Positions 583 through 44,377 of a stretch of DNA of 64,000 nucleotides are shown in pieces. A program made the translations under genes and the position numbers. The DNA lies in the NCBI GenBank assembly GCA_019751125.1, contig JAIENU010000037.1, forward strand, positions 17,586-81,585, in the 5' to 3' direction. The notes below the pieces were generated by a model. The model saw only the letters and a program-made list of their open reading frames with translations, did not search any database and was not told where the DNA came from. Source of the stretch: Burkholderiales bacterium. GTDB taxonomy: Bacteria > Pseudomonadota > Gammaproteobacteria > Burkholderiales > SG8-41. Position 1 is the first letter of the stretch. Each line of letters opens with the position of its first letter.

Positions 583-3167
583 ACGGTCGAATATCGCGGT
601 TTTTTTGCTGGTGTCTGTTGTCCGGCGTGCTGTCGGCTGACATCGCCGGAGCCGCCGATGCGGTTGAATTGCGCGTGGGTGTTTATGCCAATGAGCCCAA
701 AATCCTGCTCGACGATAGTGGCCGCCCATCAGGAATTTTTGGTGACCTGCTGCTGGAAATCGCACGCCGTGAAGGCTGGCTTATCAAGGCAGTACCTTGT
801 GAATGGCAAGTCTGCCTGGATGCCCTGCGCGAAGGTCGCATCGATCTGATGCCCGATGTCGCGCTCAGCGGTGAGCGGGAGGCGGTGTTTGATTTTCACC
901 AGGTGCCGGTGTTGCATAGCTGGTCGCAGATCTACAGCCATCCTGGCGAAAACATTTCGTCGATGCTGCAACTCCAAGGCAAGCGCATTGCGGTGCTGGA
1001 GGGCTCCGTGCAGGAGGATTTTTTGCGGCGCCTGCTTCGCGAGTTTGGTGTCCGTGCGGTGCTGGTGCCGGTGCGCAGCCTGCTCGAAGGTTTTGCGATG
1101 GCCGCCGATCATCGGGTTGCCGCCGTGGTGGCGAATCATCGCTTCGGCGACCTTCATTCGCCTGATTACCGCTTGGTGGAAACGCCGGTGATGTTCCAGC
1201 CATCACGGCTGTACTTCGCTACCGGAAATGGGCGCGGCGCCGAATGGCTTGCAGCGATTGACCGCCACATGCAGGTTTGGCAGGCTGTTCCGAATTCGAT
1301 TTATTTCGAGGTGCTCAAGCGCTGGGGGGCACCGCAGCCGGCAACGCGGGTGCCTGCGGCTCTGTGGTGGGCACTTGCTGGCATGGTGGGTTTGTTGTTG
1401 CTGGTGCTGGCAATCACCGTGTTGCTGCGACGACAGATCGGGGTGCGGACACGGGAATTGAAGTCCAGCGAAGAGCGACTGGAGACCATTCTCAACAGTG
1501 TTGATGCCTACATTTACATCAAGGATTTGCAGTTGCGTTATCAGTACGCCAATCGCAAGGTCTGCGACCTCTTCGGTGCGCCGCCCGAGTTTGTAGTGGG
1601 GCGGGGTGACGAGGATTTTTTCGACGCGAAAACCGTGGAGAAACTGCGCATCAACGATGAGCGGGTGATCGCGGGCGGAGAGCGGGTTGTGGAGGAGGAG
1701 GTTAATCGCAGTCGTGATGGCCGTGTTACGCACACCTATCTCTCGGTCAAACTACCTTTGCGCGATTCCAGCGGGAAAATCCATGCGCTGTGCGGCATCT
1801 CGACCGATATCACCGAGCAGCGCAGGTTGGCCGAGGAGATTCACCAGTTGTCTTTCTACGACCCGCTGACACATCTGCCCAACCGGCGGCAATTCCTTGA
1901 GCGTCTGGCCGAGATTCTGGGGCACGGCGATCCGGAATCCGAATCGGAGGGTGGAGGCAGGTACGGTCCAAGGCCTGGTGCGCTGCTGTTGGTAAATCTT
2001 GATCATTTCCGGATGGTCAATGAGACCCTGGGGCATGACAAGGGCGACCTGCTGCTCCAGGACATGGCGCGCAGGTTGCTGCAACACGTCGGGCCCGAGG
2101 ATTTTCTGGGTCGTCTCAACGCCGACGAGTTCGGCATGTTGCTGAATGTTGCTACGGTCGACCAGTCACGCTGCGCGCAGGAGGTGGAGCGGCGCGCCCG
2201 CCATATTCTTTCGGACATTGAGCAGCCATATTATTTTGGCGAGCAGCAACATCTCGGTACGGCGAGCATCGGTATTGCCCTGTTCCCGGCTTCCGAAGGG
2301 CTGACCGAGGACATCCTGAAGCATGCAGAGCTGGCGCGTGACCGTGCAAAAGTCGATGGCCGCAATACCATTCGATTTTATGATCCGCAGATGCAGTCGC
2401 GGATGCAGGCACGTGCTGAACTGGATGCTGACATGCGGTTGGCGTTGCGAGAGGGGCAATTCCTGCTGCATTACCAGCCGATGGCAGATCTCGACGGTCG
2501 CTTCGTTGGCAGCGAGGCACTGGTGCGCTGGCGGCATCCTTTGCGTGGTGTTGAATCGCCAGCGCATTTTATCCCGCTTGCCGAAGAGAGCGGACTGATC
2601 CTGCCGTTGGGTCGCTGGATTCTCGAGGAGTCCTGCCGGCAACTGGTGGCCTGGGAGCGCGATCCGGAAACTGCGGGGCGCTTTATTGCGATCAATGTCA
2701 GCGCCTTCCAGTTCCGTCACCCGGATTTTGTCGATCAGGTTCTGGCTGCGCTGGAGCAGACCGGCGCCAATCCTGCCTTGCTGGAGTTGGAGCTGACAGA
2801 GAGTCAGCTTATCGACAATCTTGATGAGGTTCGGGGAAAAATGACCCTGTTGAAGCAGCGCGGCGTTTGCTTCTCGCTTGATGATTTTGGAACCGGCTAC
2901 TCCTCCCTGCTGTCACTGATGCGTTTGCCGCTGGATAAGCTGAAGATCGATCAGTCCTTCATTCAGGGGCTGCCGGAAAACGCGGAGAGTGTGGCGATCG
3001 TCAGGGCCGTGGTTGGTCTTGGTGAGAGCCTGGGCATACGTGTAATAGCAGAGGGCGTGGAAACAGAAGCGCAACGCAAGGCGCTGATCGAGCTTGGCTG
3101 CAATTATTTTCAGGGTTATCTGATTGGCCGTCCGCAGCCGGCCACGTCACGCACCGGTACCTGTTGA
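579..3167 (+). CDS. Multidomain signalling protein: periplasmic solute-binding-like domain, TM, PAS, GGDEF (degenerate) and EAL
   Basis: Long ORF. TTG at 579 precedes a signal-like N-terminus (ISRFFCWCLLSGVLSADIAGA). A TM segment follows (WWALAGMVGLLLLVLAITVLL), then a PAS-like segment. The GGDEF domain reads RLNADEFGML in place of GGDEF. The EAL domain has SEALVRW, DDFGTGYSSL and KIDQSF. The start codon is uncertain. Confidence 0.85.
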   Translation: MNGRISRFFCWCLLSGVLSADIAGAADAVELRVGVYANEPKILLDDSGRPSGIFGDLLLEIARREGWLIKAVPCEWQVCLDALREGRIDLMPDVALSGEREAVFDFHQVPVLHSWSQIYSHPGENISSMLQLQGKRIAVLEGSVQEDFLRRLLREFGVRAVLVPVRSLLEGFAMAADHRVAAVVANHRFGDLHSPDYRLVETPVMFQPSRLYFATGNGRGAEWLAAIDRHMQVWQAVPNSIYFEVLKRWGAPQPATRVPAALWWALAGMVGLLLLVLAITVLLRRQIGVRTRELKSSEERLETILNSVDAYIYIKDLQLRYQYANRKVCDLFGAPPEFVVGRGDEDFFDAKTVEKLRINDERVIAGGERVVEEEVNRSRDGRVTHTYLSVKLPLRDSSGKIHALCGISTDITEQRRLAEEIHQLSFYDPLTHLPNRRQFLERLAEILGHGDPESESEGGGRYGPRPGALLLVNLDHFRMVNETLGHDKGDLLLQDMARRLLQHVGPEDFLGRLNADEFGMLLNVATVDQSRCAQEVERRARHILSDIEQPYYFGEQQHLGTASIGIALFPASEGLTEDILKHAELARDRAKVDGRNTIRFYDPQMQSRMQARAELDADMRLALREGQFLLHYQPMADLDGRFVGSEALVRWRHPLRGVESPAHFIPLAEESGLILPLGRWILEESCRQLVAWERDPETAGRFIAINVSAFQFRHPDFVDQVLAALEQTGANPALLELELTESQLIDNLDEVRGKMTLLKQRGVCFSLDDFGTGYSSLLSLMRLPLDKLKIDQSFIQGLPENAESVAIVRAVVGLGESLGIRVIAEGVETEAQRKALIELGCNYFQGYLIGRPQPATSRTGTC

Positions 3168-3847
3168 TGTACCCGATGGAGCGGCTTTCGGTCTTTCTGC
3201 TGGTGTTGGTCATGGCCGCCTGCACGCCGCAGCAGATGCTGCTCTCGGCGCTGGTGCCCGACGGCACGGCGTCGATGCTGCTCGGCAACCTGCAGGGCAT
3301 CGCCGATGCCAATCGCCAGCGCATCGCTGAACTGGAACAGCGCGGCGACTGGCCGGGGCTGGCCGCCTTCGCTGAACAGAACATCAGCCGTGATCCTTTC
3401 AGCGCCGAGTGGCGGCTGGTCGCCGGTTATGCCTGGTCGCAGGCGCGTGAATTCGGCCGCGCGGCTGCGCAGTTTGCCGAGATGGTGCGCATCGCGCCGG
3501 ACGAGGTGCTGGCTTATCACCTGCTGGCCGAGGCGCAGCGCGAATCAGGGCAGCCGGAGCGCGCAGTGGTGACGCTGGAGCGTGCATTGCAGATCGATCG
3601 CGAGCCGGCGCAGACACTGCGTCTGCTGGGTGATGCCGAAGCAGCGCGCGGCCGGCATGCCGCCGCGATGGAGGCCTATCGCCGGGGTTTGTCCACCCAG
3701 GCCAATATGGCGCCGGCGTGGTTCGGGCTGGGGCGCTCGGCGTTGCGGCTGGGGCGCGAGCGTGATGCCGCGGAGGCGCTGGCCAATCTGCAGCGGCTGC
3801 AGGCGCCGCAGGCGGCGGAACTGCAGAAACTGATGACCAGGCCCTGA
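3167..3847 (+). CDS. TPR-repeat lipoprotein
   Basis: Signal peptide with lipobox (LLVLVMAAC). Ala/Leu/Arg-rich repeats resemble TPR units (AYHLLAEAQRESGQPERAVVTLERALQIDRE, LRLLGDAEAARGRHAAAMEAYRRGL). The start overlaps the stop of the upstream gene. Confidence 0.6.
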   Translation: MYPMERLSVFLLVLVMAACTPQQMLLSALVPDGTASMLLGNLQGIADANRQRIAELEQRGDWPGLAAFAEQNISRDPFSAEWRLVAGYAWSQAREFGRAAAQFAEMVRIAPDEVLAYHLLAEAQRESGQPERAVVTLERALQIDREPAQTLRLLGDAEAARGRHAAAMEAYRRGLSTQANMAPAWFGLGRSALRLGRERDAAEALANLQRLQAPQAAELQKLMTRP

Positions 3848-3863
3848 AGTCGGGCCCTGCAGA

Positions 3864-4679
3864 TCAGGCTTTGAGCGCCGGTGTCAGGTGCGGCGCAATC
3901 AGCGGCAGCAGTTGCGCGAACACCTTCGGATTGCCGGCGACGATGTTGCCGGACTCGAGATAACCCTCGTTGCCCTGCAGGTCGCCGACCAGGCCACCGG
4001 CTTCGGTGATCAGCAGCGCGCCCGCGGCAATGTCCCATTTGCTCAGGCCGATTTCCCAGAAACCGTCGAGGCGTCCGGCGGCGACATAGGCGAGGTCGAG
4101 CGAGGCCGAACCGGGCCGGCGCAGGCCGGCGCTGTTCTTGATGATGTCGCGCATCATGCCGAGGTACTGCTCGAGGTGCGCAAGCTCGCGGTACGGGAAG
4201 CCGGTGCCGATCAGCGCCGACTGGATGTGCGGCCGCTTGCTGACGCGCAGCCGCGATTCATTGAGGAAGGCGCCGCGGCCCTTGGTCGCGGTGAAGAGGT
4301 CGTTGCGGCCCGGGTCATAGACCACGGCCTGGGTGATCACGCCTTTCTGTGCCAGCGCGATCGACACCGCGTACTGTGGAAAGCCGTGCAGGAAATTGGT
4401 GGTGCCGTCGAGCGGATCGATGATCCACTGGTATTCGGGGTGGCCGGAGCCCGTTGATCCGCCGGAAGCGCCGGACTCCTCTGCTAAAATCGCGTGCGCC
4501 GGATAGGCCTCGCGCAGCGTGCGGATGATGGCCTGCTCGGCCTCGCGGTCGACTTCGGACACAAAATCGTTGGCCGCTTTTTCCTTCACCGCGATGACAT
4601 CGACGTTGCGGCTGGCGCGGTTGATGATGCCGCCGGCGCGGCGCGCGGCTTTGACCGCGATGTTGAGCATGGGATGCAT
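3864..4679 (-). CDS. suhB: Inositol monophosphatase family protein SuhB
   Basis: 271 aa. IMPase motifs are present: [25 protein letters not shown], and [23 protein letters not shown]. It lies divergent from trmJ, as in the E. coli suhB/trmJ-iscR neighbourhood. Confidence 0.9.
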
Positions 4680-41943: not shown

Positions 41944-43068
41944 ATGCGCAAACTGCTGCAACTCATTGGTATGGTTCTGCTGGTCCAGGGCGCATCGGCG
42001 CTGGCGCAGGCTACCGTCAAATCCGAAAAACACGAATTCCGCGTCGTTACGCTGGTCCGCGGCCTGCAGAATCCCTGGTCGCTCGCCTTCCTGCCCGATG
42101 GCCGTGCGCTGGTGACCGAACGCGAAGGCCGGCTGCGCATCATCGGCAAGGACTGGCGCCTTGATCCGCGGCCGGTTGAAGGCCTGCCCGAAATCGTCGC
42201 CAGCGGCCAGGGCGGCCTGCTCGACGTGGTTCTGCACCCGCAGTACGAGAAAAACGGCTGGATCTACTGGTCATACAACGCGCCGGGGGCGGGCGGTTGG
42301 GGCACCGCGATGGCGCGCGGCAAGCTGCAGGGTGGCCGCATGACTGATGTGCAGGTGCTGTTCAGCATGGAGCCCAAGACCCGAGCCGGCCACCACTTCG
42401 GCGGGCGCATCGTGTTCGACCACAAGGGCTTCGTTTATCTGACCCTCGGCGACCGCGGCGACATGCCGCGCGCACAGCGCATGGATGACCACGCCGGCTC
42501 GGTGATCCGCCTGCACGACGACGGCCGCGTGCCCGCCGACAATCCCTTTGTGATGCAGGCCGGCGCGAAGCCGGAGAAATTCACCCTCGGCAACCGCAAT
42601 ATGCAGGGCGCAGCACTGAATCCGCGCACTGGCGAGCTGTGGACCCACGAACACGGCCCGCAGGGCGGCGACGAAATCAACGTGATGCGCGCCGGCCGCA
42701 ACTACGGCTGGCCGGTGATCAGCTACGGCGTCAACTACGGCATCGGCACGAAGATTGGTGAGGGCACCGCCAAGCCCGGCATGGAGCAGCCGCTGCTGGT
42801 GTGGACACCGTCCATCGCGCCTTCGGGCATGGCCTTCTATAACAGTGATGCCTTTCCCAACTGGAAGGGCAATCTTTTTGTTGGTGCGCTACGTGACGAG
42901 ATGCTGGTGCGGCTGGAACTGGAGGGTGACAAGGTGGTGCGGCAGGAGCGACTGATCAAGGGTGTCATCGGGCGTATCCGCGATGCGCGCGTGGGGCGGG
43001 ATGGCTTGATCTATCTGCTCACGGATGAGCGGGAGGGGGTGGTGGTGAGGTTGGAGGCGGTCAAGTAA
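41944..43068 (+). CDS. PQQ-dependent soluble sugar (aldose) dehydrogenase, YliI/Asd-like
   Basis: Signal peptide. Beta-propeller motifs: PWSLAFLPDGRALVTEREGRLRI, GQGGLLDVVLHP, HFGGRIVFD, GNRNMQG, THEHGPQGGDEIN, NYGWP. Confidence 0.8.
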   Translation: MRKLLQLIGMVLLVQGASALAQATVKSEKHEFRVVTLVRGLQNPWSLAFLPDGRALVTEREGRLRIIGKDWRLDPRPVEGLPEIVASGQGGLLDVVLHPQYEKNGWIYWSYNAPGAGGWGTAMARGKLQGGRMTDVQVLFSMEPKTRAGHHFGGRIVFDHKGFVYLTLGDRGDMPRAQRMDDHAGSVIRLHDDGRVPADNPFVMQAGAKPEKFTLGNRNMQGAALNPRTGELWTHEHGPQGGDEINVMRAGRNYGWPVISYGVNYGIGTKIGEGTAKPGMEQPLLVWTPSIAPSGMAFYNSDAFPNWKGNLFVGALRDEMLVRLELEGDKVVRQERLIKGVIGRIRDARVGRDGLIYLLTDEREGVVVRLEAVK

Positions 43069-43116
43069 ATTTTGATTTGGCGCGTTACTTCTAAAATGAG
43101 TTGTTAGGGGGGGCTT

Positions 43117-43599
43117 ATGGCTAGGAAACCTACGTTTTTTAGTTTCCATTATGCAAATGACGTCATGCGCGTTCAGCAAATTCGAAATATAGGTGCGCTT
43201 GATGGGAATGAACCGGTTTCCCCAAATGATTGGGAGCAAGTTAAACGTGGTGGGGATGCATCAGTTAAGAGGTGGATCGATGAAAATATGAAGTACAAGC
43301 AATGCGTAATTGTTCTCGTTGGTGCTGAAACCGCTGACAGGCCGTGGGTTCGTTATGAAATTGAAAAGGCGTGGAATGATGGTAAACCCATCTTTGGAAT
43401 TCATATTCATAACTTAAAATGCCCTCGGACAGGGACTTGCATTAAGGGTGCTAATCCCTTTGATAGATTTAATTTTCAAAATGGGAAAAAGCTGTCTTCC
43501 TTTGTTAAATGTTATGACCCAAACCCACTCTATGCTTATCATGACATTGCCGACAACATCGAGTTTTGGGTTGAGCAGGCGATTGCTCAAAGGAGATGA
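43117..43599 (+). CDS. Stand-alone TIR-like domain protein, ThsB family (DUF1863/MTH538-like)
   Basis: 160 aa. N-terminal beta-strand motif TFFSFHYANDV. Central region CVIVLVGAETADRPWVRYEIEKA (Glu81). Then KPIFGIHIHNL. This pattern matches my recollection of Pfam PF08937. The gene is low-GC, and a G-rich RBS precedes the ATG. Confidence 0.75.
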   Translation: MARKPTFFSFHYANDVMRVQQIRNIGALDGNEPVSPNDWEQVKRGGDASVKRWIDENMKYKQCVIVLVGAETADRPWVRYEIEKAWNDGKPIFGIHIHNLKCPRTGTCIKGANPFDRFNFQNGKKLSSFVKCYDPNPLYAYHDIADNIEFWVEQAIAQRR

Positions 43600-43600
43600 G

Positions 43601-44047
43601 ATGAATTCTGAGGAAATATTAAATTTAAATCCTGAATCTGCTTCTATTCAAACGCATTTGTCGATTATTCAGAATGTAATTCAGCGTATGGCTGATAACA
43701 GTTCCTCCTGTAAGGCTTGGTGTGTAACTTTGGTATCTGCGGTTTTAGTTATAGTTGCGGATAAGGGGCGGCCGGAATACGCATGGATTGCATTGTTGCC
43801 GACTTTTGTATTTTCGGCGCTCGATGCTTATTATCTTGCGCTTGAAAAAGGGTTTAGAAATTCTTATAACGATTTTATATACAGGTTGCACAGTAAGACG
43901 CTGAGAGCGATGGATCTTTATTCGATTACCCCCAAAGGTTGTCTCGCAAAACTTCAATTTGATTCATTGAAGTCATTTTCAATTTGGGGGTTTTACGTTT
44001 CTCTAATTGTTCTGATCGCGATAACAAAAACAATTGCTATTAAATAG
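43601..44047 (+). CDS. Small three-TM membrane protein, operon partner of the TIR-like gene (candidate effector, possibly SLATT-like)
   Basis: The ATG lies 2 nt after the upstream TGA, with AAGGAG at 43590-43595. The protein is 148 aa. It has a cytoplasmic N-terminal helix (IQTHLSIIQNVIQRMADN). Predicted TMs are at about residues 38-53, 60-80 and 125-145. Same low-GC composition. No catalytic or nucleotide-binding motif recognised. Confidence 0.7.
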   Translation: MNSEEILNLNPESASIQTHLSIIQNVIQRMADNSSSCKAWCVTLVSAVLVIVADKGRPEYAWIALLPTFVFSALDAYYLALEKGFRNSYNDFIYRLHSKTLRAMDLYSITPKGCLAKLQFDSLKSFSIWGFYVSLIVLIAITKTIAIK

Positions 44048-44091
44048 AGGTGGATAAGCGAGTTGGACATACGGTTGCGATGTAAGATTTT

Positions 44092-44364
44092 TTGATGTCG
44101 AATAATTTTCCTGACTCCTGCTATCTGATCACCGCTGTCGATCTGGTGTCCCGACTCACCGACTTCACTCTGATCGACCTCCGCCCCGCCGAAGACTTTG
44201 CCGTCGGCCACATTCCCGGCAGCATCCACGTCGATATCTACGGCGTGAGCCTCAACGATTCATCCGAAGCACCGTTCAATTCCTTTCTGGCAATCTTCCG
44301 TGTGCTCTCCGGCTCACGCCGCTTAAGCCCACCGGTAACCCTTTTGCCGCTGGCCGTAAGGTAG
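44092..44364 (+). pseudogene. Probable truncated rhodanese-domain gene remnant
   Basis: The first ~60 aa look like a rhodanese N-terminal half (ITAVDLVSRLTDFTLIDLRPAEDFAVGHIPGSIHVD). The ORF ends after 90 aa with no active-site Cys loop. Confidence 0.35.
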
Positions 44365-44377
44365 GGGCTGCGGCTCA

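Follow-up and report, generated by a model that had tools for sequence, protein, structure and literature searches.

The thsB-thsF operon and its products

The analysed window, a stretch of 64,000 nucleotides from an uncultured Burkholderiales genome (assembly GCA_019751125.1, contig JAIENU010000037.1, positions 17,586 to 81,585 of the forward strand), contains a two-gene operon formed by thsB (gene 1), encoding a stand-alone ThsB-type TIR protein of 160 amino acids (aa), and thsF (gene 2), encoding an effector of 148 aa with three transmembrane (TM) helices that belongs to the PADLOC PDC-M50A family. This pair is type V Thoeris, composed of ThsB and ThsF, and adds one more copy to a system already described, not a new kind. 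The locus very likely corresponds to a type V Thoeris defence system against phages, borne on a small, horizontally acquired cassette. Both genes are on the forward strand: thsB extends from 43117 to 43599, with its TGA stop codon at 43597-43599, and thsF from 43601 to 44047, with its ATG at 43601-43603. A single nucleotide separates the stop codon of thsB from the start of thsF, and this gap suggests translational coupling. The AAGGAG ribosome-binding site of thsF (43590 to 43595, forward strand) is within the 3' end of thsB, 5 nucleotides (nt) before the ATG.

The product of thsB shows the FFSFHY motif at residues 7-12 and a further block, LVGAETADRPWVRYEIEKA, which contains the predicted catalytic Glu81. 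This glutamate falls within WVRYEIEKA, and the catalytic position is intact. Gene 1 matches PF08937 (ThsB_TIR) in a Pfam scan (E 4e-27), the PADLOC ThsB model PDLC00433 (5.8e-73) and PDC-M50B (4.6e-62), in agreement with an initial annotation of this DNA which had read it as a 160-aa ThsB-type TIR with FFSFHY, and it is assigned as a ThsB TIR. A solved relative is PDB 8wcf_A (E 5.6e-58, 54% identity over the full length), a 160-aa protein entered in the PDB as 'Molecular chaperone Tir' and aligned to positions 43117-43596 of the window. It is much nearer to gene 1 than the ThsB of Bacillus cereus, 6lhy (E 8e-18), and the literature search on 8WCF gave no useful publication. Gene 1 shows 36.7% identity to the B. 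cereus type I ThsB and 49.6% to a type XI ThsB, and has no significant BLASTP match to the 252-aa type V ThsB of B. thuringiensis.

The product of thsF shows three hydrophobic segments by the Kyte-Doolittle method, at approximately residues 39-54, 60-77 and 125-146. The earlier description of gene 2 as a 148-aa open reading frame (ORF) with three TM helices and an AAGGAG site inside the end of gene 1 agrees with the sequence and with this hydropathy. The AlphaFold2 monomer of ThsF is all-helical (pLDDT 95.5, pTM 0.86), with helices at residues 14-55, 58-97, 115-123 and 126-147. According to this model, helices 14-55 and 58-97 would form a long hairpin whose hydrophobic turn region gives TM1 and TM2 and whose cytoplasmic ends are predicted to pack against each other; the short helix 115-123 and TM3 (126-147) come next. 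A Foldseek search of the model against the PDB shows nothing below E 1, the best hit being at 1.3, and returns only generic helical bundles. Gene 2 has no match in Pfam or NCBIfam and matches four PDC-M50A models, at 6.9e-31, 1.4e-18, 3.2e-16 and 4.4e-16. Its relatives at E<=1e-3 number 1539 in 90%-identity clusters and 3272 among 50%-identity representatives. Because gene 1 matches PF08937 and gene 2 has thousands of relatives, both are judged to be real genes and not chance ORFs.

Assignment to type V Thoeris and linkage across relatives

Thoeris types V to XI are defined by Yirmiya et al. (bioRxiv 10.64898/2025.12.03.692087, Dec 2025). In that work type V consists of a TIR protein, ThsB, and of ThsF, a three-TM effector labelled DUF2270 (PF10028) and activated by 3'cADPR, an isomer of cyclic ADP-ribose (cADPR). 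Type V was recorded in 1.2% of the genomes surveyed, and B. subtilis gained phage protection from two such systems, those of B. thuringiensis DAR 81934 and of Bacillus sp. 1NLA3E (Yirmiya et al., 2025). Table S1 of the same paper contains the TIR domain sequences, each with its assigned effector. Two TIRs listed there as 'DUF2270 - Type V', 2518998441 and 2520586276, show 63.5% and 60.8% identity to gene 1, respectively. TIR 2518998441 is that of Salinimonas chungwhensis DSM 16280 (locus L031; 149/149) and TIR 2520586276 is that of Algicola sagamiensis DSM 14643 (L011; 149/149), and a gene 2 homologue is located directly downstream of each of them (65% and 72% identity, respectively). The untested '3TM' category of the paper was also considered as a match and was rejected: its TIRs are ISHSW-type and are in other clusters.

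The validated ThsB of B. thuringiensis DAR 81934 was recovered (P0271, 100% identity) together with its locus (L087), in which the validated ThsF is the 141-aa gene directly downstream (L087 4773-5195). Gene 2 shows 40% identity to this ThsF over 73 aa (BLASTP E 1e-14), and a profile of 100 diverse gene 2 relatives aligns with it by hhalign at 99.4% probability (E 1.1e-21, 122 columns). Homology to the validated protein places gene 2 as a ThsF, one that is below the Pfam threshold for DUF2270. The validated ThsF also matches PDC-M50A at 1.8e-48, model PDLC04686 being common to it and gene 2, and because both proteins match the same PDC-M50A model, PDC-M50 is type V Thoeris. In the window, the PDC-M50A and PDC-M50B matches are in adjacent same-strand genes, as obtained with the individual PADLOC models and without the system-calling rules of PADLOC. 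The PDC entries are untested 'phage defence candidates' in PADLOC, included because they occur inside known defence systems (Payne et al., bioRxiv 10.1101/2024.01.29.577857), and PDC-M50 by name is absent from the text of that paper. Literature searches on type V Thoeris, ThsF and DUF2270 with TIR gave the preprint of Yirmiya et al. alone, and a search on PDC-M50 gave nothing useful. The initial annotation had presented the pair as a candidate uncharacterised module, not placed among the named Thoeris types. This description is out of date, since the pair already has a name, type V Thoeris, and is also listed as the PADLOC-DB v2.0.0 candidate PDC-M50; the Pfam and PADLOC scans that it proposed place gene 1 in PF08937 and ThsB, and both genes in the PDC-M50 models.

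An alignment of 84 ThsFs, which includes the validated B. thuringiensis protein, a plasmid copy and a prophage copy and in which the partners belong to at least five ThsB clades, shows seven invariant residues: Q24, R29, M30, K38, E82, R86 and Y89. On the AlphaFold2 model and the hydropathy, these residues would map to the cytoplasmic portions of the hairpin, the region in which Yirmiya et al. (2025) locate the predicted basic ligand pocket, and R29, K38 and R86 would fit such a pocket.

The window system shares with the Bacillus type V systems a two-gene organisation, with a TIR and a three-TM effector of approximately 140-150 aa. It differs from the B. thuringiensis system in that its ThsB is a 160-aa FFSFHY-type protein, unrelated in sequence to the 252-aa ThsB, and in that its ThsF is about 40% identical over the N-terminal half only. 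Both window proteins strongly match the PDC-M50 models, whereas the PDC-M50 catalogue entry carries no mechanism. With type I Thoeris (B. cereus MSX-D12) the window has in common the Pfam family of its ThsB-type TIR and a predicted signal, 3'cADPR, which is the type I signal, but it has no SIR2-SLOG ThsA and its effector is a membrane protein and not an NADase. Type II consists of a TIR and a TM-Macro protein and signals through His-ADPR, and type VII consists of a TIR and the SLATT protein ThsH and signals through canonical cADPR (Yirmiya et al., 2025). As in these two types, a TIR signal would activate a membrane-disrupting effector; gene 2, in contrast, contains no Macro or SLATT domain and represents a different effector family, probably with a different signal.

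The linkage of the two genes was analysed with one genome per species: 222 gene 2 relatives were found and 80 loci were kept, with 49-78% identity to gene 2. These loci belong to Pseudomonadota, Cyanobacteriota, Desulfobacterota, Bacteroidota, Chloroflexota, Nitrospirota and two archaeal metagenome-assembled genomes. Counts refer to the 74 loci for which 500 nt or more of upstream sequence was available. A gene-1-like TIR is directly upstream on the same strand in 58 of the 74, so that the check for TIR genes beside gene 2 homologues suggested by the initial annotation shows a conserved operon partner in many phyla. Six further loci contain a longer upstream ThsB, 66-69% identical to the type I ThsB of B. 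cereus MSX-D12, a known 3'cADPR synthase, and the ThsFs beside them are 57-60% identical to gene 2. Seven other loci show another TIR clade beside thsF: a TIR similar to that of Bacillus sp. 1NLA3E is beside thsF in L078 and L082, the former also with a gene-1-like TIR approximately 1 kb downstream, and just downstream of thsF in L028 and L029; the TIR adjacent to thsF in L064 shares 46% identity with the type V ThsB of B. thuringiensis; and in L010 and L056 larger TIR proteins adjoin thsF. Loci L069, L070 and L073 show no gene-1-like TIR. The ThsF homologues of L033 (2683-3129) and L050 (5986-6441) have no TIR among the ORFs within approximately 1.5 kb; one adjoins a transposase-like gene and the other an unrelated small gene, and they may be orphaned effectors or lie in rearranged contigs. 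The genes flanking the window pair are common to none of the 80 loci, and the pair has therefore been acquired many times independently.

Distant ThsF-like genes, whose products are 32-35% identical to gene 2, were also found on mobile elements. In Vibrio phage 10N.286.55.A5_PE002 (L091, PQ189363.1) a ThsF-like gene and a TIR (1347-2635) are in a 14-kb Vinavirales prophage, beside an integrase. In the Klebsiella pneumoniae conjugative IncF plasmid NZ_CP024543.1 (L092) the order is ThsF-like gene and then TIR (2471-3776), beside an IS110 transposase. Plasmid records with a ThsF relative number 132 and belong mostly to Klebsiella and Escherichia.

Proposed mechanism and alternative readings

In the proposed mechanism, ThsB would be a TIR enzyme that is inactive until phage infection is sensed and that, once activated, would make an isomer of cyclic ADP-ribose from NAD+, most probably 3'cADPR. 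Three helices would hold the small ThsF protein in the inner membrane, where its copies are predicted to assemble into a homo-oligomeric ring whose positively charged pockets lie between neighbouring protomers and face the cytoplasm. The signal would bind in these pockets and open or distort the ThsF assembly, and the resulting membrane breach would stop phage replication by abortive infection. This scheme follows the work on the Bacillus homologues: the TIRs of both type V systems produced 3'cADPR, only upon infection; of the isomers added to cells with the B. thuringiensis system, 3'cADPR proved toxic but neither 2'cADPR nor cADPR did; defence by this system was lowered by the Tad1 sponge; and AlphaFold3 predicted ThsF as a ring homo-heptamer with basic inter-protomer pockets (Yirmiya et al., 2025). 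The idea that the membrane protein is an effector gated by the product of the TIR, already advanced in the initial annotation, is supported by this work, in which the mechanism was shown experimentally for a homologous pair. By analogy, the window pair would be active in the same way.

Several points weigh against a working type V system in the window. The type V system of Vibrio cholerae ZWU0020, the sole gammaproteobacterial one tested, gave no defence in Escherichia coli, and external 3'cADPR failed to activate the system of Bacillus sp. 1NLA3E (Yirmiya et al., 2025). The ThsB clade of gene 1 and the proteobacterial ThsF subfamily would be linked to defence via homologues only, and the ring oligomer and its putative ligand pocket derive from the AlphaFold3 predictions of that paper. 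The Pfam scan of the larger neighbouring ORFs does not place the window locus in a defence island. The operon shows no promoter or terminator consensus, and contains one internal promoter-like site which is no better than those of shuffled sequence. As to the signal, the type XI ThsB with 49.6% identity to gene 1 made none of the known TIR signals (Yirmiya et al., 2025). Finally, PF10028 (DUF2270) is unmatched at E<=1 by gene 2, by the validated B. thuringiensis ThsF and by the ThsFs of L031, L011 and L064, and it reaches 8 of the 100 gene 2 relatives, with a best E of 0.0012. The relationship between ThsF and DUF2270 appears remote, if any, and the 'DUF2270' label of the paper looser than Pfam membership. 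PF24838 ('8xMP, octameric membrane protein family') is equally weak, matching the ThsF of B. thuringiensis at E 0.012 and 5 of the 100 relatives, and a literature search on 8xMP gave nothing useful.

By analogy with these relatives, the signal of the window ThsB is probably 3'cADPR rather than another molecule. The one type V system with a demonstrated effector response uses this molecule (Yirmiya et al., 2025). ThsFs which are close to gene 2 (57-60%) are paired with ThsBs 66-69% identical to a known 3'cADPR synthase, and the invariant polar residues of ThsF are unchanged whatever the partner TIR clade, being present also in the 3'cADPR-responsive ThsF of B. thuringiensis. These same two observations stand against a reading that we consider unlikely, yet the strongest of the alternatives, in which the ThsB plus ThsF architecture is the same and the signal is a different isomer of cADPR or a novel molecule derived from NAD, with the ThsF subfamily tuned to it. 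In favour of such a signal, gene 1 is closer to the type XI ThsB than to the B. cereus type I ThsB; type XI Thoeris also contains the FFSFHY-type 160-aa ThsB clade of the cassette; type V, type XI and patatin partners occur together in the TIR clusters 2612507145 and 2661146773 of the paper; and the Bacillus sp. 1NLA3E system was not triggered by 3'cADPR. If true, the very conserved proteobacterial ThsF subfamily may be the dedicated receptor of this signal, and the window would belong to a new signalling sub-type of type V Thoeris.

A second alternative, also raised in the initial annotation, is that the TIR is itself the effector, an NADase which depletes NAD+, and that the membrane protein merely anchors the TIR, senses for it or regulates it. 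Some bacterial TIR domains are NADase effectors of this class in CBASS, Pycsar and TIR-pAgo contexts (Yirmiya et al., 2025). In the homologous validated system, by contrast, the TIR alone yields the signal on infection, and 3'cADPR without phage is toxic to the cells carrying the system; the toxicity is therefore downstream of the signal. Moreover, at least five unrelated ThsB clades serve interchangeably as partners of ThsF and lie on either side of it, which favours a diffusible signal over a specific protein-protein anchor and leaves this alternative highly improbable. The least probable of all is that gene 2 is a SLATT effector and the pair a type VII Thoeris signalling via canonical cADPR: gene 2 is indeed a small helical membrane protein beside a TIR, and 1 of its 100 relatives weakly matches SLATT_6 (E 0.0077), which is all that came of the SLATT families suggested in the initial annotation, but gene 2 itself, which has no Pfam match, shows no SLATT match at E<=1, its family matches PDC-M50A and the validated ThsF instead, and the TIRs of near-identical neighbours are listed in Table S1 as type V and not as type VII.

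The low-GC cassette and its insertion site

The type V pair is contained in a variable low-GC cassette of 1313 bp (43057 to 44369), composed of thsB, thsF and a truncated rhodanese ORF and located between a GSDH gene and a gene encoding a 135-aa membrane protein. The GC content is 0.42 in gene 1, 0.376 in gene 2, 0.438 in the cassette and 0.631 in the whole window, in line with the foreign, low-GC composition that the initial annotation had assigned to both genes. A close relative (L089, and also L090) shows by blastn 96.9% identity to the window up to position 43056 and 95.4% from position 44370, and none between. The cassette replaces the last four codons of GSDH. At the same site L089 contains a different cassette (2968-4040), of 1073 bp and 0.43 GC, which encodes a 275-aa protein with an HSDR_N_2 domain (restriction-enzyme N-terminal, nuclease-like; E 8.8e-6). 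This cargo protein has no PADLOC match and may represent a single-gene defence candidate not yet catalogued. The interval between the GSDH and the 135-aa membrane-protein genes is read from this comparison as a swap site, and the foreign GC content, together with a site that has different cargo in a close relative, points to horizontal acquisition of the cassette. The cassette boundaries show no flanking direct repeats, tRNA gene, Rfam element or integrase marking the site.

The truncated rhodanese-like ORF (44092 to 44364, forward strand) encodes 90 aa and matches PF00581 (E 2e-7) in profile positions 6-48 of 102 only. Its GC content, 0.56, is above those of thsB and thsF. This ORF is absent from L089 and has no PADLOC match. 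It is beside thsB-thsF in five of the six copies of this locus from metagenome contigs (L001-L004 and L006), and L005 ends short of it. It is probably a gene remnant outside the defence system, and may be a leftover of an earlier cargo.

Upstream, within approximately 10 kb, the locus shows genes encoding RF3 (prfC), an HTH-cupin regulator, DJ-1, DctP, a methyltransferase, a hydrolase, Mfd (mfd) and GSDH. The gene just upstream of GSDH is presumably mfd, as named from its 1181-aa translation without a Pfam scan. Downstream, the truncated rhodanese ORF is followed by small membrane proteins, DUF4395, rubredoxin, TauD, a hydrolase and a CDF transporter. SIR2, SLOG and Macro domains were absent from gene 2 and from the larger ORFs within approximately 10 kb on each side, in a scan which did not include every small ORF. 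These larger ORFs belong only to housekeeping Pfam families, and the absence of a nearby ThsA-type partner noted in the initial annotation is confirmed. The validated B. thuringiensis type V operon adjoins opposite-strand genes encoding a UvrD helicase and an OLD-like TOPRIM/AAA ATPase (L087 5454-8759), which correspond to the Gabija (GajA/GajB) domain pair; the B. thuringiensis copy is thus in a defence island, unlike the window copy.

As a discovery the locus has little weight, since the type is already named, catalogued and validated in Bacillus. Pfam and NCBIfam models overlook ThsF, and routine annotation will go on labelling it 'hypothetical'. The sequence data document for the window pair intact catalytic and conserved residues, an operon structure and linkage across bacteria and archaea, and the pair is an intact example of a widespread proteobacterial ThsB/ThsF subfamily. 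It indicates that type V Thoeris travels as a minimal cassette of approximately 1.3 kb into a housekeeping region, outside a defence island, at a site which contains different cargo in a relative.

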